Assembly (NCBI GenBank): GCA_042852035.1
Contig: BAAFHK010000001.1
Location: forward strand, 510,001-542,000
Source of the DNA: Candidatus Saccharimonadota bacterium
GTDB lineage: Bacteria; Patescibacteriota; Gracilibacteria; BD1-5; UBA2023
Length of the DNA: 32,000 nucleotides
Reading direction: 5' to 3'
Program-made: the position numbers and the translations under genes
Shown here: piece by piece, positions 1 through 18,336 of the stretch
How positions within the stretch are numbered: position 1 is the first letter of the stretch
How the letters are laid out: each line of letters opens with the position of its first letter
Notes under the pieces: model-generated
What the model was told of the DNA's origin: nothing
What the model saw: only the letters and a program-made list of their open reading frames with translations
Database searches by the model: none

Positions 1-483
1 GGATGACTTCGATACTTTCTCTACGAGTACGAACAATATCTTCTCGAATCTTCGAAGAATTCTACTGCAAAAATCACATGGGAGAAGTTTACCAAAGAAC
101 AGGATATGATATCTATAGAGCATATTCTTCCTCAAACACCCGATAAATCTTGTTGGTCACATTTTGTATCACAGTATAGTCCTGAAGAAATGAATTACTT
201 TACGAATACTCTCTGAAATCTTCTCGCTCTCTCACAACCAAAAAACAGTAGTCTCCAAAATGATTGTTATGAAAATAAGCGAGTTGACGGAGAAAAGAAT
301 CGATGATATTTCAATGGATCATATTCGGAATGTAGAGTTGCTGAGACTTATAAGGAATGGACTCCTTATTCTATAAAAGAGCGAGGACTTGAACTCCTCG
401 GATTCATGGAAGAGAGATGGAATATTAATCTCGGGGATGATACTACAAAGATGAAGTTATTGAATCTTGAGTTTTTAGATTAA
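1..483 (+). CDS. C-terminal part of a DUF1524/GmrSD-type His-Me finger nuclease domain protein (5' end outside window)
   Basis: Frame 1 is open from nt 1 to TAA 481-483 if TGA 214-216 and 304-306 are read as Gly. Translation contains ISIEHILPQTP ... NTL(G)NLLALSQPKNSSLQND, the remembered DUF1524 motif pair (EHI.P..... LGNL.L....N). The first TGA sits on the G of LGNL. Confidence 0.7.
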
Positions 484-539
484 AAATTAACGATGCCATA
501 GCTTATGTCACAAATTATTTTCTTTCTATAAATTTTTTC

Positions 540-590
540 TTGCTTTCTTTAATATAAAGAGTAGTATAACCATACCCTATGGTTAGGTAT
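540..590 (+). promoter_or_regulatory. Candidate promoter (TTGCTT-16-TAGTAT) followed by a CsoR-type operator
   Basis: Two overlapping inverted repeats lie just downstream of the -10-like hexamer: AACCATA-ccc-TATGGTT (568-584) and ATACC-N9-GGTAT (572-590). ATACC...GGTAT arms resemble remembered Firmicute CsoR operators. The site is 19 nt upstream of the Cys-rich micro-ORF and about 190 nt upstream of csoR. Confidence 0.5.
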
Positions 591-608
591 ATTTAATAAT
601 AACTATTT

Positions 609-686
609 ATGACTACGAATAAATGCACATGCAATCCATGTACTTGCAAGACTTGTTCTTGCGGTGATGGAACATGTTGCAACTAA
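609..686 (+). CDS. 25-aa cysteine-rich metallothionein-like micro-protein
   Basis: ATG 609 to TAA 684-686 translates to MTTNKCTCNPCTCKTCSCGDGTCCN: 8 Cys in 25 residues, arranged as three CxC pairs spaced by two residues plus a terminal CC. It lies between a CsoR-type operator and csoR. Too short for the 60-aa ORF track. Confidence 0.55.
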   Translation: MTTNKCTCNPCTCKTCSCGDGTCCN

Positions 687-699
687 ATTGCACATAAAA

Positions 700-715
700 T
701 CCCGCGGATGCGGGA
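700..715 (+). terminator. GC-rich hairpin after the micro-ORF (weak terminator or attenuator)
   Basis: TCCCGC-ggat-GCGGGA is a perfect 6-bp GC stem in an AT-rich context, 14 nt after the stop codon. No clean U-tract follows. Confidence 0.3.
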
Positions 716-736
716 GGTACTTTCGCTAAAAAGTAA

Positions 737-748
737 TTTGAATATACT
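737..748 (+). promoter_or_regulatory. -10 region (TTTGAATATACT) for csoR
   Basis: The same TTTGAATAT(A/G)(C/A)T motif heads both copies of the 275-bp element (14281-14292, 16400-16411). It lies 34 nt upstream of the csoR ATG. Confidence 0.4.
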
Positions 749-781
749 GAAATCATAGGGTTTTTCAATATAATTTTCAAT

Positions 782-1054
782 ATGATAATTTCAAAAGATA
801 AAATACAGCTCAATATCAAGAAGGCAATGGGAACACTTGCCAAGGTTCAAAAGATGATAGATGACGATGTGTACTGTGCTGATGTTGCCCACCAGATAAA
901 TGCGTCTATGGGGTTATTGCAAAGTGCAAATCGTGAACTTCTCAAAAATCACCTCTCTTGTTGTGGAACAAAGGCTCTTTCATCTGAATGAAAGGAAAAA
1001 GAAGATTTTATCGAAGAACTGGTTCGGACTTGGGATATTGCTACCAGAAAATAA
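782..1054 (+). CDS. csoR: CsoR-family copper-sensing transcriptional repressor
   Basis: ATG 782 to TAA 1052-1054 with TGA 989-991 read as Gly (90 aa). DUF156-like sequence: ...MIDDDVYCADVAHQINA...LLKNHLSCC.... Spacing Cys32-His57-Cys61 (25 and 4 residues) matches the x-C-H-C Cu(I) fingerprint of M. tuberculosis CsoR (C36/H61/C65). Confidence 0.85.
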
Positions 1055-1096
1055 TTTGCCTTTTATCTCAGTATCGCATATACTCAGATCCATTCT

Positions 1097-1495
1097 ATGG
1101 TATTTCTTTATAAAAAACTCATCAGTATTAGTATACTTCTTGCTGTATTTCTTTTTGGAAATATGGCTATTGTGCATGCTGTATCGGAGCTGTCTCATAC
1201 AAAAACAATCTCCCATACTCATGATGGCATCACAGAGTCCCATACGGTATCTACTACATCAGAAGATAAAGAACCTCCCCATTGTACACAGACGAAGATA
1301 GATACAAACATTATTCAACAAGTCAGAGATAACGCTGATATACCAGATATAGGAAAAACAGTGGTTTACTTGTATATCGGATGAGATATAAAAACGGATT
1401 CGATCACTCAGGATACCTATTTTCAGTACTATCCTTGAAGTGAAAATCATTTTTTCTGACATTTGCTTGTAGGAGAGACTATATTAGTGCTTTAG
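1097..1495 (+). CDS. Membrane-anchored His-rich hypothetical protein
   Basis: ATG 1097 to TAG 1493-1495 with three in-frame TGA (132 aa). N-terminal hydrophobic anchor LISISILLAVFLFGNMAIVHA, then SHTKTISHTHDGITESHTV...PPHC. No family recognised. Confidence 0.5.
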
Positions 1496-1512
1496 AAAGT
1501 ATCTCTTTTTCT

Positions 1513-1531
1513 GTATACCTTTTTGGTATGC
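1513..1531 (+). promoter_or_regulatory. Second ATACC/GGTAT inverted repeat (candidate CsoR operator, alternatively a weak terminator)
   Basis: GTATACC-ttttt-GGTATGC shares the ATACC/GGTAT arms of the 572-590 site with a shorter spacer. It lies 32 nt upstream of the membrane-fusion-protein ATG and 18 nt after the preceding stop. Confidence 0.35.
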
Positions 1532-1562
1532 GGATTTTTTGTATTTTCCTAAATCAATTTTT

Positions 1563-3509
1563 ATGACAACTAAAAGTAATATTTTTTATCTTGCTATAAC
1601 AGGAATCTTTTCATCTATTTTAGCAGGATATATTCTCGTAGGAGCACATGGTGGACATGGGGACGAAGAAGCAGAAAATCTCGGATGAGATTCTTCTGTC
1701 ACACTCTCGACATGAGCTACTTTTACCACACTACAAGTAGCAGATATGAGTAACCTCTCAATACCCACCTATCCATGAACAGTACTATCAGATAACTATG
1801 GGTCGATATTTCCAGAACGCCAGTGAATCATAGGGGAACTTCTCGTAAGTCTCGGAGATACCGTGAAAAAATGACAACGAGTTGCTACCATCAATGCTCC
1901 TACTAATACTCCAGAAATGGTGAGTATGGTAGCATGACAACGAGCTGAAATTGCTATAGCTCAATGAGAGCTTCAGAGTGCGAAAGAAAAACTCATCTAC
2001 ATTAATGATGTTGTTGCGAGTCCAAATAGTTCTTTTCGACAAGCGTATGATGTTCAGAGAAAAGCTCTAGATATTCAGTATGAAGTACAGAAAAAACAAC
2101 TTGATGCAAAAATCGCAAGCCTCAGGGCAAATCTCGAAGCAAGATGAGTAGTCATAGAGAGCAGTAGACAAGCGAGTAGTGCTACCATAGCAGAAAATAC
2201 TCAAAAACAAGAAACTGCTAAAAAATATCTTATCGGAAAAGCAAATGAGGCAATCGCTGAGCTTCTTACCATTTTCTATAACTGAGATCGGAATAATCTT
2301 GGTATTAATACAACTTCATATGTATTTTATTGGTGATATAACTCAAACTGGTGATCACTTGGTGTAAATGATCGACAGAAGATATTGGATATACCTGAAA
2401 GGTTTCATAAAAATATGCAAACCATAATGCCTATGTATCCTCTTTCAACGGAAATATCGACTATAGATCTCAGTAGAACCCTCCGTTCACTCGAATCACT
2501 GATCAATGATGCAAATTCTATTTATGCAATTATTTGACCCGCATCGACTACAAATTATACCGAAAATAAACAAGAACTTTTATCGCTCCTTTCTGGAGAT
2601 AACGGCATTCTTATACTTCAATCCCGACTGATTGAGATAGAAAATGGAACACTCAGTGCTAACGCCACAGCATCATGAACATTATCTCAAGCAAATGCTG
2701 ATCTTATCGGACTCAAACAAGAAATGGCACTTCTTGAATCAGAACGTGATCTTCTAGAAGCAAATAAGAAAAAAGATTATGCAACACTCAGTGGTGAACA
2801 ATCTCTTTCGAGTGTAGATCTCGAAAAATTAAAAATCGAAGCACGCTCAGAGCAAATCGGCTCAGAAAATCGTGTGAGAGCTCTCCAGAATGCCCTTGGA
2901 GCAATACAGAGTACTATGAAAGTAAGTTATGCTGTCGCTCCTTTTGATGGTGTCATTTCTCGAAAAAATGTCAGTATCGGACAAACAGTAGATGTGACGA
3001 CCCCAATTTTTGATATTGCAGGAAAAAGTGAATCTCTTGATCTTTTTGTACGATTTGAAGTTCCTGTTGCTGAATACGCAACCATAAAACAATGACAGTC
3101 TATCCAAGTTAGTCTTCCTTGAATTGAGGCAGAGAGTACTCAGGCTGAAGTTACTCGATTTTCATCATCCGTGAATCAAGATACTCAGACAATTTCAGTA
3201 GAGGCTTCTATCGATACTTCCCATCTTCCTGTCGGAACACAAGTTCGTATAGTAAAGTCTGGACTTACAGGAACTGGATACATAGAAATTCCGAAGACAA
3301 GTATTCTCGAAGAATGAGAAGAATCATATGTCTATAAAGTTCTTCCGAATAATACTTTGAAAAAATGGAAAATCACTTATGAGAATATCGGATGAAAATA
3401 CATCATTACCGAATGACTCAAGGCGGATACTCGTATAGTTACAGATGCTCAAGATGAACGATGGAAAGATAATATGGATGTGGGTGCGATTTTATCCACT
3501 AACCCATAG
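1563..3509 (+). CDS. Efflux RND periplasmic adaptor (HlyD/CusB-type membrane fusion protein), unusually long
   Basis: ATG 1563 to TAG 3507-3509 in frame 0 with many TGA read as Gly (648 aa). N-terminal TM (IFYLAITGIFSSILAGYILVG) followed by HGGHGDEE. Lipoyl/beta-barrel-like segments (GDTVKKGQRVATINAP; VAPFDGVISRKNVSIGQTV). A very long coiled-coil-like middle. Its stop is 5 nt before the RND pump start. Confidence 0.75.
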
Positions 3510-3514
3510 TCAAT

Positions 3515-6500
3515 ATGCTCAATAGTCTTATAAAATTTGCTCTCAATAGAAGACCTCTCGTTCTTTTTCTCTACCTTATTATCAGTATTTTTGGGATCTA
3601 TACACTCTCAAAACTCCCTGTCGATGTACTCCCAGATCTTAATCGTCCTCGTGTCACAGTATTTGCGGAAGCAGAAGGTATGAGTGCTGAAGATGTAGAA
3701 AAGATTGTTACACTTCCTCTAGAACGAACCTTGCGCACTATTGCTTCAGTAGATGCTGTGAGATCCAGTTCGGCTGGATGACTCTCGGTCGTGAATGTAG
3801 AATTCGATTGGTGAAGTAGTGTAAATATCAATCGTCAAAGAGTATATGAAAAAATAGCATCAGTCACTCTCCCTGATGGAGTACATCTCACTGTAGCTCC
3901 AGAATCAGCACTGATGGGAGAAGTTCTTTGGATGGGATTGACTTCGACAGATCCAAAGATAAGTCAATCAGACCTTCGTCTCTATGCTGAAACTGAGCTG
4001 AGACAATCTCTTTCTACTGTATCTGGTATTTCGAATCTTTTGATTATGTGAGGTTCTGCCCCACAGTACACTATCTCTATTGATCCTGCAAAACTTTCCC
4101 AAAAACACCTTACTATCGAAGATTTACAAAAATCACTTTCAGACATTACCAATCCTGGATGAGCTGGTATAGCTATAGATAAAAAATCAGAATACCCGAT
4201 TAAACTTAACCCCATACAAAATACTGAAGAAAAGATTGGATCTATTGCTCTTCCGAATGGCAATATCCTCAAAGATATAGCAAGTATAGAAGTCGGGAAA
4301 AATAGCCAAAGACGATGAGATGCGCTCATCGATGGAAAAGAATGAGTCATAATCCGAGTTTCGAAAGTGCCAAATGCAAATACGGTAGATCTCACAAATA
4401 CACTTCTTGCTAAAATTACTGAGATTCAAAAGACTCTCCCCAAATGAATAGAGCTTAACGATGATATTTTTCGTCAAACATGGTTCATCGAGAAGTGATT
4501 GACAAATGTAGAAGAAGCCCTTAGGGATGCAGCGATTATCGTAGCGATTATCGTAGTACTCTTTCTTCTGAATGCTCGTACTGCATTCATTACAATGATC
4601 TCTCTTCCGATTACACTTCTTTTATCAGCAATAGTGTTCTATATTTTCTGAGTTGGGATCAATATTATGGTACTCGGAGGGCTTACTATTGCTATCGGAG
4701 AACTCGTGGATGATGCTATAGTGGATATGGAAAATATTTTTAGACGGTTACGACTGAATGCACTCCTTCCAAGCGAAGAACGTATTCATCATCTGAAAGT
4801 AATATTTGAAGCGTCGAAAGAAGTACGATGAAGTGTAGTTTACGCTACTATTCTTCAGCTTATAGTATTTATTCCATTTCTTCTTCTTCCATGAATCGAT
4901 GGGAAAATACTTGCCCCTATCGGTATGGCATATATTACTTCGATGATTATGTCACTCCTCGTAGCGGTGACTTTTGTTCCTGTCATATGTAGCTATCTCC
5001 TTCCTACATGGATCGAAAAACGTCATGGGAAAATATCTGAAGATACTTGGTTTACGGAAAAACTCAAACACTGGGCAAAATGACCAATTCTCTGGAGTCT
5101 CAAAAATCCACAGAAAGCCCTCCTGTTTGCTCTTTTATCCATACCACTTACTCTACTTGGATACGTGATGGCAAGTGAAGAATGACTTCCTGCATTTAAC
5201 GAATCAAGTTATACGATTTCCATCACCACAAAACCCTGAAGTTCACTGGAATACACACTCGATATTACAAAAAATTTCTCTCTGGAACTCAGAAAGATCT
5301 CATGAATCGAACGAGCTGGAGCGATTCTCTGACGTGCTGATGCTGATGCTCATGCTCAATGATCGAATAATGCAGAAATCGAAGTGGCACTCGCACCAGA
5401 TGTAACCAATGAAGAAAAAGCGAGAATCTATGATGAAATAAATGGCGTAATCGGGAAGTATAAACAAGTTGCCGTCATTGGTATAGGACAACCTATTACA
5501 CATAGAGTAGAAGAAATTATTTCAGGAATTCGTGCCCCACTCGTTATCAAGGTTTTCGGGGAAGATCTGGATACCTTAGAAACACTCGGAAAGCAGATCG
5601 TAGAAATCACCAATACTGTCGAAGGTACTCTCAATATTTCCCTAGAATCTCAAACAAAAATCCCAAGTATTACCGTCACGCCAAATACCCCATCTCTTGT
5701 CTCACAGAAAGTAAACTACAATGAAGTAAAGGAACTTCTTGATGTGGGAATCGGAGGACAAGAAGTCGCACGCGTGATAGAGTGACAAAATTCCTATCCT
5801 GTTGTTATGCGTTTTCCGATCTCATGGACAAGTACGCCAGAATCCATAAGAAGTATTCCTTTTTGGCTATCTGATGAACGAACATTTTTTATCGGAAATG
5901 TTGCGAATGTAGAACTTGGGAAATCGAGAAACATTATCAATCATGAAAACTCAGCGAGACGTATAGTTATATCATGATATACAAAAGATCGTTCCATAGT
6001 CGATGTAGTCGATGATATAAAGAAAGAAGTGGAAAAACTCGATATACCTTCAGGGTATAGAGTTTCGTATGAGGGACTATATTCTGCTCAAAAAGAATCC
6101 TCAAAACTTCTGATGTTTATCTCTATTGGTGTCCTTCTTGCTCTTTTTGGAATCCTTTATTGGCATTTTGGAAGTATTGTACTCGTGCTTCAGATATTTC
6201 TCGGTATTGTCACGGGGTGGTTCTGAGGAATTCTCTGAGTTTGGCTCACGGGAGGAGTTATATCTACCGCTCATCTTGTAGGATTTATCGCACTCATGGG
6301 TATCGTATCGAGAAATGGTATCATGCTCATTGATCATTATAAGCATCTCTGTCTCGAAGAATGACTTCCTTTTGATAAAAATACTATTCTCAAAGGATCT
6401 CTTGAACGTATCGTCCCTGTTTCTATGACAGCACTTTCTGCTATTCTTGGTCTTCTTCCTCTCGTTCTCTGAGCAGGTGATGCAGGGAAGGAAATGCTAT

Positions 6501-6640
6501 CACCGATAGCAACAGTGATATTTTGGTGATTGTTTGTTTCCACGCTTATTGAACTTGCTCTCAGACCATGAATTTTCTATAGATATTATCGTGAAGGTTT
6601 TCATCCGAAAGCATCAAAAAATACTTATATAGTCGAATAA
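3515..6640 (+). CDS. CusA/CzcA-family heavy-metal efflux RND transporter
   Basis: ATG 3515 to TAA 6638-6640, a single frame-2 reading with TGA = Gly (1041 aa). Typical N-terminus [18 protein letters not shown]...[17 protein letters not shown](G)SS at TGA 3812-3814. (G)LPAFNESS and [10 protein letters not shown](G)SNNAEIEV blocks. C-terminal TM bundle. Confidence 0.9.
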
Positions 6641-6660
6641 TTTATTTTCTCACCTTTTCT

Positions 6661-6674
6661 TTATGGATCCATAA
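6661..6674. promoter_or_regulatory. Perfect 14-bp palindrome TTATGGATCCATAA upstream of the DUF305 gene
   Basis: Read directly from the sequence. It lies 51 nt upstream of ATG 6725. The TATGG/CCATA half-sites also occur in the 568-584 repeat, in the opposite arrangement. Confidence 0.3.
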
Positions 6675-6724
6675 TAATTCTCTTTTCTATTGTTGTTCAT
6701 CTTCTTATTTTTTACCTATTTTTT

Positions 6725-7396
6725 ATGAAAACTTCTATCATCATCGGACTTATCGTCCTCTCATCTCTCGCTCTCGCTAGTTGTAGTGATACCACTCAGA
6801 AGACTCCTATATCTACGAATCCTGCACCAACCTCTTCTGTTACATCGACTTCCACTCCAAAAACTACTTCCGCAACATCGACTAATACATCTATGGCAGG
6901 TATGGATCATTCAAAAATGGATATGGGGACTTCTACAGATAGCGGAAATATGACATCTATGGATCATATGTGAGCTTCTACAGAAGAGGAATTCATCGCT
7001 AATATGATCCCCCATCATCAAGAAGCTGTCGACACTGCGAGTATTATCGTAGCAAAAACTGAAAATGTAGAGCTCAAAAAAATTGCACAAAATATTGTTT
7101 CGGCTCAGAAAACAGAAATAAGTCTTCTGAATTCTTGGATGAAGACATGGTATCCAAATAGTACCCTCAAAATAAATTATATGCCTATGATGCGTGATCT
7201 CTCAAAACTTTCTGATCATGATCTTGATGATGCATTTATGGAAGATATGGTTAAGCATCATGAGTGAGCGGTGCATATGGCAGAAGAAGTTCTTGAAGTA
7301 TCTCAACGACCTGAAATTGTCCAGATGGCAAATGATATTATTCGTACACAAAATGCAGAAATCAAGAAATTTAAGGAACTTCTTGGAAATCATTAA
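6725..7396 (+). CDS. DUF305-family lipoprotein (copper-resistance associated)
   Basis: ATG 6725 to TAA 7394-7396 with TGA 6971-6973 and 7265-7267 as Gly (223 aa). Lipobox LALASC, S/T-rich linker with MDHSKMDMG/MTSMDHM. Two DUF305-like repeats: MIPHHQEAVDTA and MVKHHE(G)AVHMA. Confidence 0.8.
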
Positions 7397-7414
7397 TTTT
7401 TTATCCCTATTTTT

Positions 7415-8089
7415 ATGAATCAAAAAGATTGTTGTCATATCGAAGAGAAGGCATCACTTAAGCCCTTATACCTACTCCTTGTAGGTATTGGATGAGTGAG
7501 TATTGGTCTTACTCTTCTTTTCCCTATAAATACCTTCATGATGTACCTGATGGGTGTATGGTTTCTAGCTTTTGGATTACTAAAGCTTTACGATCTCCGT
7601 GGTTTTGTAGAAGCATTCTGCCAGTATGATTTTATTGCAAGAAAATTAAAGTTATATGGATATATCCTTCCTTTTTTAGAAATAATCCTTGGTCTTATCT
7701 ACATACTCAATACGAGTATGCTCTATATGACAGCGGTAAATGTAGTAGCTCTTATTATTTCTCTACTTGGTATAGTCAGTGCCTATTCGGTTGTGAAATC
7801 AGGAAAACAGATCGCATGTGCATGTATGTGAACAAAGTGGAAACTTCCAATGACAAAAGTTACTGTATTGGAAAATCTTTTTATGGCTTTTATGGTTGTA
7901 TATATGTTTATATATCCTGAATCCATGATGAATATGACTGATATGAATACTGGGAGTCATGTTATGCAGGTAGATGAAAGCACCATTATGTCTTCTGAAA
8001 TGATGACACCCTCATCAAATAATGATGATGTTATGCGTGAACACTGTAAAATGATGCCAGAAATGGTGGGCTGTGAAAAATATAGATAA
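7415..8089 (+). CDS. MauE/DoxX-like integral membrane protein with Cys/Met-rich C-terminal tail
   Basis: ATG 7415 to TAA 8087-8089 (224 aa). N-terminal CCH, four hydrophobic segments. ACACM(G)TKWKLPMT resembles the CxCxG motif of MauE-type proteins. The tail ends ...DVMREHCKMMPEMVGCEKYR. Confidence 0.65.
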
Positions 8090-8108
8090 TTCTTAACCTT
8101 ATCCGTAT

Positions 8109-9854
8109 ATGAAAAAACTCCTTTTAATATTCCTTATTCCTGTATTGCTTTGAAGTTGTAGTATTGTTTGACTAAACAATCCTCAAAATAAGGAACAAAC
8201 ATCCGTACAGGTTATAACATCAACTGAAAATCCACAGGACGCTATGATGCGTGAACACTGTAAAATGATGCCGAGTATGGCAGGTTGTGAAAAATACAAA
8301 AATGATGCCAATACAAATAATTCAACTAAGAAAAGTTTGAATGAACTTATCTTGGTAGATGACGAAACAACCACTGATGTAAAACCAACAGAAGTAGTCA
8401 ATCTGAAAGATGGAGATACTTATGACCTCACTATACAAAAAGTTCGTAAGGTTATAAATGGTAAGACCTTTATTATGCTTTCGTATAATGGAAGTATCCC
8501 TTGACCAACTTTCCGTGCTCCAAAAGGTGCAACAATAAAGTTTAAGGTTCGTAATACTGTAAAGGAACTTGCCACGACTATTCATCCACACGGTGTACGG
8601 CTCAACTATCTCTATGATGGTGTACCAAAAGACCAAGGTGGAGCACAAGACCCAATTAAAGTAGGCGATGTGTACGAACAAATTATTACTTTTCCAGATA
8701 CTGGAGTGATGTGGTATCATCCACACACACGAGATGACTTCGAACAAGAACTTGGTGAATATGGAACATTTCAGATATACGACCCGAATGAAAAACCAAC
8801 AGTAGATAGTCAAAATGTCATTACACTTGATGATGTTCTTATAGAAAATGGAGTTATTCCACCATTTGAACAAGATACCGTAAATTATACCCTGATGGGT
8901 CGCTATGGAAATACAATGTTTGTAAATGGAAATACAGACTTCTCACTCACAATCAAACAAGGGGAAATAAAGAGGCTCTATCTCATCAATACTGCCAATG
9001 CAAGACCATTTGATTTTTCCATTCCTTGAGTGAAGATGAAATTGATCGGTGGTGATATGGGGTATTATGAAAATGAGAAGTTTGTAGACCACCTTATTAT
9101 ATCTCCCGCTGAACGCTACATAGTCGATATTATGGGTGAAAAATCTGGTAATTTTCCAGTGCAAAGTATCGGTGGTGGAAAAACTATTTCACTTGGAACA
9201 TTGACGGTAATGCCAAACACAACTCCCTCAATCTATAAAAAAGATTTCGAAACACTCAAAACTCATGATATTCTCTGAAATCTTAAAAATACACTTTCAT
9301 CCTACCAATCAAAAACACCAGATAAAAGTCTAAAAATCACCATGACCATGGAAGGAATGGATGGTATGGAATGAATGGGAGATATGGGTGGCATGCATCA
9401 TAATATGTGATGAATGGGTATGGGTGGTATGAGTATGGGAGACGAAAGTCCTGATGGTATAGAATGGGAAGATACAATGGCAATGATGAACTCAAATAGT
9501 ACCAATAAGACAACAAAATGGATACTCCGAGATGAACAAACAGGAAAAGAAGGTATGGATATAGATTGGAGTTTCAAAAAGTGAAGTCTTGTGAAAATAC
9601 GCCTTACGAATGATAAAGATGCTATGCACCCAATGCAACATCCATTCCATATGCACGGACAACGGTTTTTGATACTCAATCAAAATGGAACAGTAAATAC
9701 AAACTTTGTATGGAAAGATACAGTTCTCATACCAAAAGACCAATATGTAGATATTCTTGTAGATATGAATAATCCTTGAAACTGGATGGCACACTGTCAT
9801 ATCGTAGAGCACCTCTTCTCTGGTATGATGTTTGGATATAAAGTTATAGAATAA
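8109..9854 (+). CDS. Multicopper oxidase lipoprotein (CopA/CueO-like) with Met/Gly-rich loop
   Basis: ATG 8109 to TAA 9852-9854 in frame 0 (581 aa). Lipobox LL(G)SCS with TGA 8151-8153. Copper ligand motifs HPHGV, WYHPH, HPFHMHG, HCHIVEHLFSGMM. Met-rich insert MTMEGMDGME(G)MGDMGGMHHNM(GG)MGMGGMSMG. Confidence 0.9.
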
Positions 9855-16705: not shown

Positions 16706-16732
16706 TCAAATATTTGATACTAAGTCTCAATT

Positions 16733-17131
16733 ATGGATATTGAATCACTTCTCAAGTCTCATGGAAAAAGCATCACAAAAGAGAGAATAGAACTATACGA
16801 ATGAATCCAAAACTTACACCTCTTCCAAGCAAGTGATCTCACAGAGAAATTTCCACACATAGGACGTGCCAGCATCTTCCGTGTTCTCAATCTCTTTGTA
16901 GATATTGGAATTCTCAGAAAATTGATCCTCGACGATAGATGAGACTTTTATGAGCTTGAAGAGCAGTCACACCATGAACATTTTGAATGCAAGAGTTGTC
17001 ATACAGTCTTTCACTTTGATGCTCGATCTATCTGCAAAATGCTTGAATATCTCGCAAAAAAACAGTGATTTCTTCTTAAAAATCATCAAATCCTCCTCTC
17101 TTGAGTCTGTCCAAATTGTAACCAACATTAA
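16733..17131 (+). CDS. Fur-family metalloregulator (Zur-like)
   Basis: ATG 16733 to TAA 17129-17131 with four TGA as Gly (132 aa). wHTH ...GRASIFRVLNLFVDIGIL, metal-site HHEHFEC, structural Zn pairs CKSC and CPNC. Zur is inferred only from the adjacent COG0523 gene. Confidence 0.8.
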
Positions 17132-17133
17132 TC

Positions 17134-18336
17134 ATGCAAAAACTCATTCCCGTCACCGTACTTTCCTGATTCCTCTGAAGCGGAAAAACCACTCTCCTCA
17201 AACATATCCTCGAAAATCGAGAATGACTCAAAGTGGCTCTCATCGTCAATGATATGGCAGAGATTAATGTCGATGCCAATCTTATCAAAGATGGAATTGA
17301 ACTCTCGCAAACAGAAGAAAAACTGGTAGAAATGTCGAATGGTTGCGTATGTTGCACCCTTCGTGAAGACCTCCTCATCGAGGTTAAGCGCCTTGCAGAA
17401 GCAAATAAATATGATGCTATTATTGTGGAGTCAACTTGAGTTGGAGAACCTGTTCCTATTGCTCAGACTTTTTCTTATGTTGATGAAGAAAGTGGTATTG
17501 ACCTCTCAAAACTTGTCAGACTTGATACTATGGTAACAGTTGTGGATGCAAAGGAGTTTTTGAAGAATTTTTCTACTGCCGAAGCACTTAAAGATAGAGC
17601 ATGGGAAGCAACTCCGGAAGATGATAGAACTATTGTAGACCTCCTTGTAGAACAAGTTGAGTTCTGTGATGTACTCATCGTCAATAAGATATCTGGAATA
17701 TTAGAAGAAGAAAAAACTACTCTCAGAGCCATACTCAAGTGACTTCAGCCAACAGCAGAATATATAGAAACTGACTGGGGTAAGGTAGATATAGATCGCG
17801 TGATCGATACTGGATTATTCTCTATGGAGAAGGCAGAAAATAGCACTCTCTGGATGCGAGAACTCCAGTCATGATGACATAAAAATCATACACCAGAAAC
17901 AGAAGAATATGGAATTTCTTCATTTATCTACCGTCGAAATAAGCCATTTCATCCTGAAAGATTTCTCTCTCTTGCTAATAGGGAATGGGCTGGTGTTATC
18001 CGCTCAAAATGACTCTTCTGGCTCGCAAGCCGTAATAATCTCGCAGGAAGCTGGGGGCAGGCAGGAGGATCTGTACGAGTCGACCCTGCATGAAGCTGGC
18101 TCTCTGCGCTCCCGAAGGAACAACTCGCCCTCTATCCAGAATATCAGGCTGAACTCCTTGATTTTAAGGATTTCCCTTACCACGATAGAAGACAAGAACT
18201 CGTGATTATAACAATTCGATGAAACCAAAAAGAGATAGAAAACATGCTCGATGCGGCCCTTCTTACGGATGAAGAGATGCTCGCATGACCTGAGACCTGG
18301 AAGACATACCATGATGGATTTCCAAAGTGGAATTAA
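17134..18336 (+). CDS. COG0523 (CobW/YjiA/ZigA-type) G3E GTPase, putative zinc metallochaperone
   Basis: ATG 17134 (2 nt after the fur stop) to TAA 18334-18336 (400 aa). Walker A S(G)FL(G)SGKTTLL with TGA at 17167-17169 and 17176-17178. GCVCC metal motif, [17 protein letters not shown], CobW C-terminal domain. Confidence 0.9.

Follow-up and report, generated by a model that had tools for sequence, protein, structure and literature searches.

A putative copper metallothionein-like micro-ORF between a CsoR-type operator and csoR in Gracilibacteria

Metallothioneins are understood here, in operational terms, as small peptides with about 15-30% Cys or more, CxC, CC or CxxC motifs, few or no aromatic residues, and thiolate clusters that bind several d10 ions. 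Their apo-forms are disordered. Fungal copper metallothioneins of the Neurospora crassa type are about 25-26 amino acids (aa) long, contain 7 Cys and form a Cu6 cluster. Among bacteria, the only copper metallothionein listed in the reviews consulted is MymT, which was found by accident and was originally an unannotated small open reading frame (ORF) (PMC7558416). MymT and the oxidase MmcO are repressed by RicR, a CsoR paralogue (PMC10470581). SmtA, in turn, is a Zn/Cd-binding protein whose fold resembles a zinc finger and includes His ligands (PMC7558416). Two further systems share local features with the element described below: a Cu4-S6 cage forms on a CNCTNCKC... peptide from Drosophila MTF-1 (PMC2396432), and mycobacterial polycysteine upstream ORFs (uORFs) regulate operons of cysteine metabolism by means of Cys-codon runs and by sequestering the ribosome binding site (10.1101/834739). 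Here we describe a micro-ORF of 25 codons plus stop at positions 609..686 (+ strand) of a 32,000-nt stretch of DNA, hereafter the window, from a bacterium labelled Candidatus Saccharimonadota and placed in the Gracilibacteria by GTDB (assembly GCA_042852035.1, contig BAAFHK010000001.1, positions 510,001 to 542,000). We consider it likely that this micro-ORF is the first cistron of a CsoR-repressed, copper-inducible transcript and encodes a cytosolic Cu(I)-thiolate metallothionein peptide.

A conserved cysteine-rich micro-ORF upstream of csoR

The micro-ORF starts at the ATG at 609, stops at the TAA at 684-686, and encodes on the + strand the putative Cu(I) metallothionein-like peptide MTTNKCTCNPCTCKTCSCGDGTCCN. 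Its Cys residues occupy positions 6, 8, 11, 13, 16, 18, 23 and 24. The translation thus bears out an earlier note on this DNA, which had proposed 8 Cys in 25 residues, arranged as (CxCxx)x3 followed by CC. With 32% Cys, the ORF ranks first among the 347 ATG-initiated ORFs of at least 20 aa in the six frames of the window, the runner-up containing 18%. A density of 8 Cys per 20 aa was reached in none of 100 shuffles of the window, in which the maximum was typically 5 and at most 7. The Cys richness of the micro-ORF is far beyond chance. The composition of MTTNKCTCNPCTCKTCSCGDGTCCN is that of a metallothionein (25 aa, 32% Cys, CxC and CC motifs, no Phe, Tyr, Trp or His). The same holds for 22 orthologous peptides, the exceptions being one Tyr in the peptide of locus L033 and a single His in those of L027 and L156-L158 (related loci are designated by L numbers throughout).

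The window has 37.6% GC and reads TGA as a sense codon: its ORFs of at least 100 aa total 26,235 aa under code 25/4 versus 8,235 aa under code 11. A Shine-Dalgarno motif was found at none of the 13 gene starts inspected in the window; in most of them the ATG is preceded by a T-rich run and the second codon is A-rich. Because no checked gene of the window has such a motif, its absence from the micro-ORF is uninformative.

Related contigs were collected through a CsoR homologue search and the slot upstream of csoR was then inspected; the distribution described here is known for two CsoR clades. The operator 20-mer CATACCCTATGGTTAGGTAT was also scanned in one genome per species. The exact 20-mer occurred once per genome in 21 species genomes, nearly all labelled Gracilibacteria, and in 20 of these 21 a Cys-rich ORF started 36-62 nt past it. 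csoR followed at about +212 in nearly all loci with the 20-mer, and the ORF has a fixed place between operator and csoR. Slot peptides from the related contigs include MNTKKCTCNPCTCKTCSCGDGTCCN, MKTEKCTCNPCTCETCSCGSGCACGNK and MKTTQCTCNSCTCKTCSCGNGSCCN. Among the more divergent peptides of the family are MNEKKCCCTTCNCENCSCKTTCCACCKA, MNNEKCSCKGCAPETCSCDTGCTCGKE, one of 37 aa with CxCENC repeats and one of 57 aa with 17 Cys. In the second CsoR clade the slot holds ORFs of 28, 50, 59 and 64 aa, the 64-aa version of one strain differing from the 59-aa version of another by an in-frame 15-nt duplication (CKCVD). Altogether, 22 distinct peptides with the core CxCxxCxCxxCxC were found across both clades. 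Divergent members have little DNA in common but retain this core, and within 203 kb of related loci Cys-rich ORFs are confined to this slot.

The pattern of variation is that of a coding sequence. The frame is kept across ORF lengths of 25, 26, 27, 28, 37, 50, 57, 59 and 64 aa, with all indels in frame. At the eight Cys codons of 13 distinct 25-codon sequences, none of the 16 first and second codon positions is variable, versus five of the eight third positions, all of them TGC<->TGT exchanges; a hypergeometric estimate of ours puts this split at about 0.001. Moreover, L034 has a TGA codon at the place of the GGA/GGG codon of Gly21, and TGC-TGA-TGT in L022 and L156 corresponds to TGC-GGA-TGC in L168. 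This TGA/GGA correspondence supports both translation of the family and decoding of UGA as Gly. Conservation of the DNA only, or frame-disrupting variants in relatives, had been set beforehand as outcomes that would speak against a gene; the 22 peptides, the synonymous Cys-codon changes, the in-frame indels and the matching of TGA with GGA at Gly favour coding instead. By this comparison, 609-686 is conserved at the protein level in over 20 genomes of relatives, and it is therefore probable that the micro-ORF represents a new, very small family of bacterial copper metallothioneins.

Database searches returned little. The window peptide had no match at E<=1 in Pfam or at E<=10 in NCBIfam, nothing above threshold was found in either library for the 28-64-aa variants, and a PDB profile search gave nothing. 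A profile search of 5.8 billion predicted proteins recovered a single called relative, P0056 (51 aa), which is the L033 peptide with an N-terminal extension; this gene call exists because of a spurious in-frame extension from an ATG inside the operator. The expectation that gene callers miss the ORF was thereby confirmed. An exhaustive HMMER scan of 1.84 billion representatives yielded only P0056 and unrelated repeat proteins. The matches listed for a metagenome-wide degenerate DNA pattern of the Cys motif were dominated by (TGC)n-type simple repeats and are uninformative on distribution. No publication on metallothioneins or on copper systems of Gracilibacteria turned up in literature searches.

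A separate observation was made on an unrelated code-11 metagenome contig (L155, ~90-240, - strand), which carries a 37-aa Cys-rich micro-ORF, MNKGICACPSCNCPNCACIYLECECTPECNCGCECGK, with a strong Shine-Dalgarno motif, promoter-like sequence and an XRE-like gene behind it. This may be another unannotated metallothionein-like peptide.

Regulator, operator and transcript

The csoR gene (782..1054, + strand) encodes a 90-aa protein, with an in-frame TGA read as Gly at 989-991, and matches Pfam PF02583 (E=5.6e-17). The NCBIfam RicR model also matches its product, below the cut-off of that model. Among PDB entries the closest match is M. tuberculosis CsoR (2hh7, E=1.1e-9), in which the Cu(I) ligands C36/H61/C65 align with C32/H57/C61 of the window protein; the N-terminal His is absent. 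Judged by this alignment, the regulator carries the Cu(I)-type C-H-C ligand set and not the sets of CstR or RcnR.

The promoter P1 (540..567, + strand) consists of a -35 element TTGCTT (540-545), a 16-nt spacer and a -10 element TAGTAT (562-567). When 18 loci are aligned, the -35 keeps its TTG and the -10 its TA...T without exception, and the spacer is variable. P1 is presumably of sigma-70 type, with a predicted transcription start at about 573-575. The CsoR-type operator O1, AACCATACCCTATGGTTAGGTAT (568..590), overlaps the -10 element and the predicted start site. This pseudo-palindrome occurs once in the window and comprises a TAC...GTA dyad flanked by TA repeats, with TAC-N11-GTA spacing. 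Known CsoR operators likewise contain a TAC/GTA dyad with flanking TA repeats, commonly spaced TAC-N9-GTA (PMC3902906). As a type, CsoR operators are taken here to be pseudo-palindromes that combine such a dyad with C/G tracts. The promoter and operator claimed to lie directly ahead of the micro-ORF are thus found there, and the assignment of the operator to CsoR gains support from relatives that lack the ORF. Indeed, the same promoter and operator stand directly before csoR in L018, L006/7 (one operator mismatch) and L011-13, which points to O1 as a putative csoR autoregulatory site. The ORF-less loci L162-165 have a different palindromic operator before csoR, and in L009 a SHOCT gene intervenes. 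Because ORF-less relatives have promoter and operator directly before csoR, the ORF is part of a ~190-nt cassette present in some lineages and absent from others. A possible second promoter, P2, detected by consensus scan (10/12 matches), has a -10-like TATAAT at 769..774 (+ strand) with CTGAAA at 747-752, and may drive csoR.

An ATG also lies within the operator (CCTATGGTT; window 578-580), with equivalents in L027, L028, L033, L035 and L168. It is in frame with the micro-ORF in some genomes; in the window a stop codon separates the two.

The transcript of the cassette is predicted to be strongly structured. RNAfold gave -64.6 kcal/mol (z=-6.9) for the cassette RNA, and both RNAfold and RNAalifold predicted a long-range helix between a 5' arm, ACCCUAUGGUUAGGUAUAU (574..592, + strand), and a 3' arm, AUAUACUGAAAUCAUAGGG (742-760), which is followed by UUUUU (761-765; whole element 742..765, + strand). 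Over 17 pairs and 18 loci, 99.3% of cells are paired, with the 5' arm held constant by the way the loci were found (operator 20-mer). Substitutions in the 3' arm are all wobble-compatible, and two pairs are changed on both sides. The helix closes the minimum-energy fold of every cassette examined (196-372 nt, both clades). Inside it, after the stop codon, lies hairpin HP1 (UCCCGC-GGAU-GCGGGA; 700..715, + strand), the GC hairpin that the earlier note had seen behind the micro-ORF. HP1 shows a compensatory change from G-C to A-U in 4 of the 18 loci and is replaced by entirely different stems in L029 and L033; it is one of several conserved RNA elements in the cassette. Hairpin HP2 (GUACUUU-CGCUA-AAAAGUA; 717..735, + strand), paired in 90.7% of cells, is less well supported than HP1; in L020, UACC...GGUA replaces UACU...AGUA. 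No pairing is predicted in the consensus fold for the A/U-rich stretch around the AUG (about -17 to +14). Rfam contained no family matching the cassette.

At the DNA level, the 742-760 block (O2) repeats the transcribed part of O1 in inverted and degenerate form. The complementarity sets in where transcription is predicted to start, leaves out the half of O1 that is not transcribed and does not include the GTA dyad, which is required for CsoR binding in S. lividans (PMC3902906). Because the block lacks this dyad and mirrors only the transcribed part of O1, we favour a role at the RNA level, as a 5'-3' clamp, a terminator or a processing site, and a full second CsoR operator at O2 seems unlikely. 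The long-range helix was also considered as a canonical intrinsic terminator; this is only partly tenable, the U-run being missing in L166.

Several transfer RNA genes occur near the cassette. In L020, a tRNA-Cys(GCA) gene (2608-2681, on the - strand of the locus, which is that of the micro-ORF) lies between the P2-like block and csoR. It starts about 16 nt past the TATAAT-equivalent hexamer, directly downstream of a 28-aa peptide with 11 Cys. In L016, genes for tRNA-Cys and tRNA-Arg (5220-5297 and 5028-5105) occur on the same strand some 2.5 kb upstream, and serine-recombinase genes lie between; tRNA-Asn (L025) and tRNA-Ser (L166) genes adjoin the promoter. These genes could supply Cys-tRNA, or could merely reflect insertion of an island beside tRNA genes.

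Copper genes around the cassette

The copper-export/oxidase cluster that the earlier note had placed behind csoR is present. Downstream of csoR, co-directional copper cargo fills 1097..9854, all on the + strand. It consists of a small secreted protein (1097-1495), an HlyD/CusB-like adaptor (1563-3509; Pfam HlyD_3/HlyD_D23), an RND pump (3515-6640; PF00873 is on record for its L001 homologue), a DUF305 protein (6725-7396; Pfam), a MauE-like protein (7415-8089; Pfam MauE) and a multicopper oxidase (8109-9854; Pfam Cu-oxidase domains). The cargo varies between loci (RND/HlyD, DUF305, MauE, multicopper oxidase or a CopA-type ATPase), whereas the unit of micro-ORF and csoR is constant. The upstream neighbour in the window is the 3' end of a GmrSD-type gene.

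The motif MREHCKMMPxMxGCEKY occurs in the C-terminus of the MauE-like protein (8042-8089) and again near the N-terminus of the multicopper oxidase (8256-8310); this could be a small module for copper handling, rich in Met, Cys and His, of which the two neighbouring genes carry duplicate copies. In L031 (7560-7680, cassette orientation) the cassette is intact, the csoR behind it has a large internal deletion that leaves a product of about 33 aa, and another csoR-like gene lies about 1.3 kb upstream. Serine recombinase/resolvase genes adjoin the micro-ORF/csoR locus in two lineages (L001:2091-3122 / L016; L006:65-1960). Together with the widely differing cargo, these neighbours suggest a mobile or frequently rearranged copper island. 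An origin from a mobile element was considered, but plasmid and phage collections showed no similarity. Further along the window, at 16724-18336, what looks by eye like an ORF for a small Fur-like regulator precedes an apparent CobW/COG0523-type GTPase (GFLGSGKTTLL motif); the pair would be a second metal-homeostasis unit.

Proposed function and comparison with known systems

In the mechanism we propose, CsoR bound to O1 would cover the -10 and start site of P1 and keep the unit off at low copper. Cu(I) filling C32/H57/C61 would release CsoR from the DNA and allow P1 to fire; such copper induction is what the behaviour of the CsoR family would lead one to expect. The first product would be a compact, highly structured RNA of about 190 nt, whose operator-derived 5' end would pair with the segment just before the U-run while the A/U-rich AUG region stays open. 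We infer that the peptide is translated in vivo and binds metal. The six core Cys of CxCxxCxCxxCxC and at least two C-terminal Cys would wrap a polynuclear Cu(I) cluster, roughly Cu4-6, the precedent being the Cu4-S6 cage of CxCxxCxC in Drosophila MTF-1. By analogy with MymT, the peptide would buffer cytosolic Cu(I), and the downstream CusAB-like efflux pump and oxidase, expressed through read-through or from P2, would remove it.

Several points weigh against this interpretation. At several codons of the ORF synonymous variation is missing, and strong structure extends over the whole cassette RNA; selection at the RNA level therefore also acts and inflates the apparent conservation. The ORF is dispensable, being missing in L018, whose CsoR is 95.6% identical, and in L006, L009, L011-13 and L162-165. 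The best match of any family member was Metallothio_Euk, at E=0.42 and 11.1 bits versus a cut-off of 22 bits; because no metallothionein-family homology is detectable, the label 'metallothionein' rests on composition, motif and context. The metal specificity is deduced only from regulator and cargo, expression, translation and metal binding of the peptide are all predictions from sequence, and a translation-coupled regulatory role of the Cys codons could coexist with a function of the peptide.

The main alternative, which we disfavour and regard as unlikely, is a regulatory leader. A shortage of Cys-tRNA, for instance through thiol depletion under copper stress, would make ribosomes pause at the Cys codons, refolding of the downstream hairpins or of the long-range helix would set read-through into csoR and the efflux genes, and the peptide would be functionless. 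Short polycysteine ORFs of mycobacteria do act as cysteine-responsive attenuators (10.1101/834739), and here conserved RNA structures and a U-run lie between ORF and csoR, joined in L020 by the tRNA-Cys gene between cassette and csoR. However, peptides that have otherwise diverged retain both the precise CxCxxCxCxxCxC spacing and a pair or triplet of Cys at the C-terminal end, and the long variants resemble domain duplications with up to 17 Cys, whereas an attenuator needs few clustered codons. Neither consensus nor single-sequence folds predicted pairing of the Cys-codon tract with the csoR start region or with HP1/HP2, the distance from ORF to downstream elements varies (transcripts of 196-372 nt), and the operon serves metal resistance, not cysteine supply. 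It is very improbable that the cassette is a structured regulatory RNA, either a small RNA or a cis element, in which the ORF is incidental. The high stability of the fold (-64.6 kcal/mol, z=-6.9), the covarying HP1, the long-range helix in every cassette examined, and high nucleotide conservation that includes some synonymous sites would all fit such an RNA, but it would not account for Cys-codon changes limited to third positions, indels in multiples of three or the TGA~GGA match. Moreover, cassettes of unrelated nucleotide sequence still encode ATG-started Cys-rich ORFs, Rfam gave no match and the AUG region is single-stranded in the consensus fold.

Natural products that bind copper and are modified or exported typically derive from small, Cys-rich precursors. 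The micro-ORF has this form, and RND/HlyD exporter, MauE/DoxX-like, rhodanese and DsbA-like genes occur nearby in the window, so a precursor of a chalkophore, a bufferin or a SCIFF-like ribosomally synthesized and post-translationally modified peptide (RiPP) was weighed, along with the possibility that the ligand is Zn, Cd, Ag or persulfide instead of Cu(I). We hold this pair of options to be quite unlikely. No maturase (radical SAM, DUF692/MNIO or MbnBC-like) was found in the scanned genes of window 1-9854 or in the Pfam records of the loci found through CsoR; csoR is the only constant neighbour, the exporter being often absent; and the peptide shows neither leader/core architecture nor a signal peptide. 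The other ligands are further disfavoured by the regulator, whose residues form the Cu(I) C-H-C set rather than those of CstR or RcnR.

A more elaborate version of the Cu(I) metallothionein reading can be put forward tentatively, and we think it rather doubtful. In it, a self-contained metallothionein cassette would have been gained or lost as a block between operator and csoR, and the operator DNA would double as the RNA 5' arm of a 17-22-bp clamp with the 3' end of the cassette ahead of the U-run, giving a discrete, end-protected mini-mRNA for what would be the smallest bacterial metallothionein known. Translation of the Cys-ORF (and in at least one genome also a co-located tRNA-Cys gene) would be linked to read-through or processing at this clamp, which would then set the level of csoR/efflux mRNA.

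If the metallothionein reading is true, the Gracilibacteria peptide adds a second, unrelated family of bacterial copper metallothioneins, widespread in one candidate phyla radiation (CPR) lineage with tiny genomes and an altered genetic code, and hidden from the protein databases and family libraries now in use. Cytosolic Cu(I) of episymbiotic Gracilibacteria would then be buffered by a peptide whose length is at or close to the lower end of the range reported for metallothioneins. The central claim is directly testable by synthesis, because the window peptide is encoded without a TGA codon, and the natural variation (25-64 aa, 22 variants) could be used in studies of minimal Cu(I)-thiolate clusters. 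The locus is also an internal control for decoding of UGA as Gly, and a worked example for the systematic mining of micro-ORFs beside metal sensors.

Among the systems to which the micro-ORF can be compared, the mycobacterial polycysteine leaderless uORFs are likewise unannotated, very short, Cys-rich first ORFs upstream of RNA structure (10.1101/834739). The micro-ORF differs from them in its metal-motif-like Cys spacing, its copper-resistance operon and the protein repressor site at its promoter. The zinc metallothioneins SmtA/BmtA are also bacterial, small and Cys-rich and are controlled by a metal-sensing repressor, but this is of the ArsR/SmtB type versus CsoR, and the micro-ORF has no match to Pfam Metallothio_Pro. 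The cluster domains of Drosophila MTF-1 and yeast Ace1/Mac1 have the identical local motif CxCxxCxC, for which experiments have demonstrated assembly of a tetranuclear Cu(I)-thiolate cage (PMC2396432). Those domains sit in large eukaryotic regulators, whereas the micro-ORF encodes a free-standing peptide, and no homology is implied.

The fungal metallothioneins of the Neurospora crassa type are similar in size class, in their CxC-rich layout, in their Gly/Ser/Asn/Thr spacers and in their lack of aromatic residues; variants such as ...CSCGSGCACGNK are reminiscent of the sequence ...CNCGSGCSC... in the fungal proteins. However, they are eukaryotic, their Cys spacing differs from the regular CxCxx repeats of the micro-ORF, and no Pfam metallothionein model matches the latter at threshold. 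The resemblance is one of composition and probably convergent.

MymT offers the closest parallel in function and context: its Cys-rich ORF is small and was at first unannotated, its repressor is a Cu(I) sensor of the CsoR family with a multicopper oxidase also under its control, and it is proposed to sequester cytosolic Cu(I). At 4.9 kDa it is twice the size of the 25-aa Gracilibacteria peptide, for which no Pfam or NCBIfam metallothionein model rose above noise, the presence of a MymT model in these libraries being unchecked. MymT also has a separate locus, whereas the Gracilibacteria ORF is a first cistron fused into the csoR promoter region, on a self-pairing mini-transcript, in code-25 CPR bacteria. 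The best reading is that the two peptides are analogous, not homologous. The micro-ORF peptide belongs to no described metallothionein sequence family and, by analogy, probably works in the manner of MymT and RicR.

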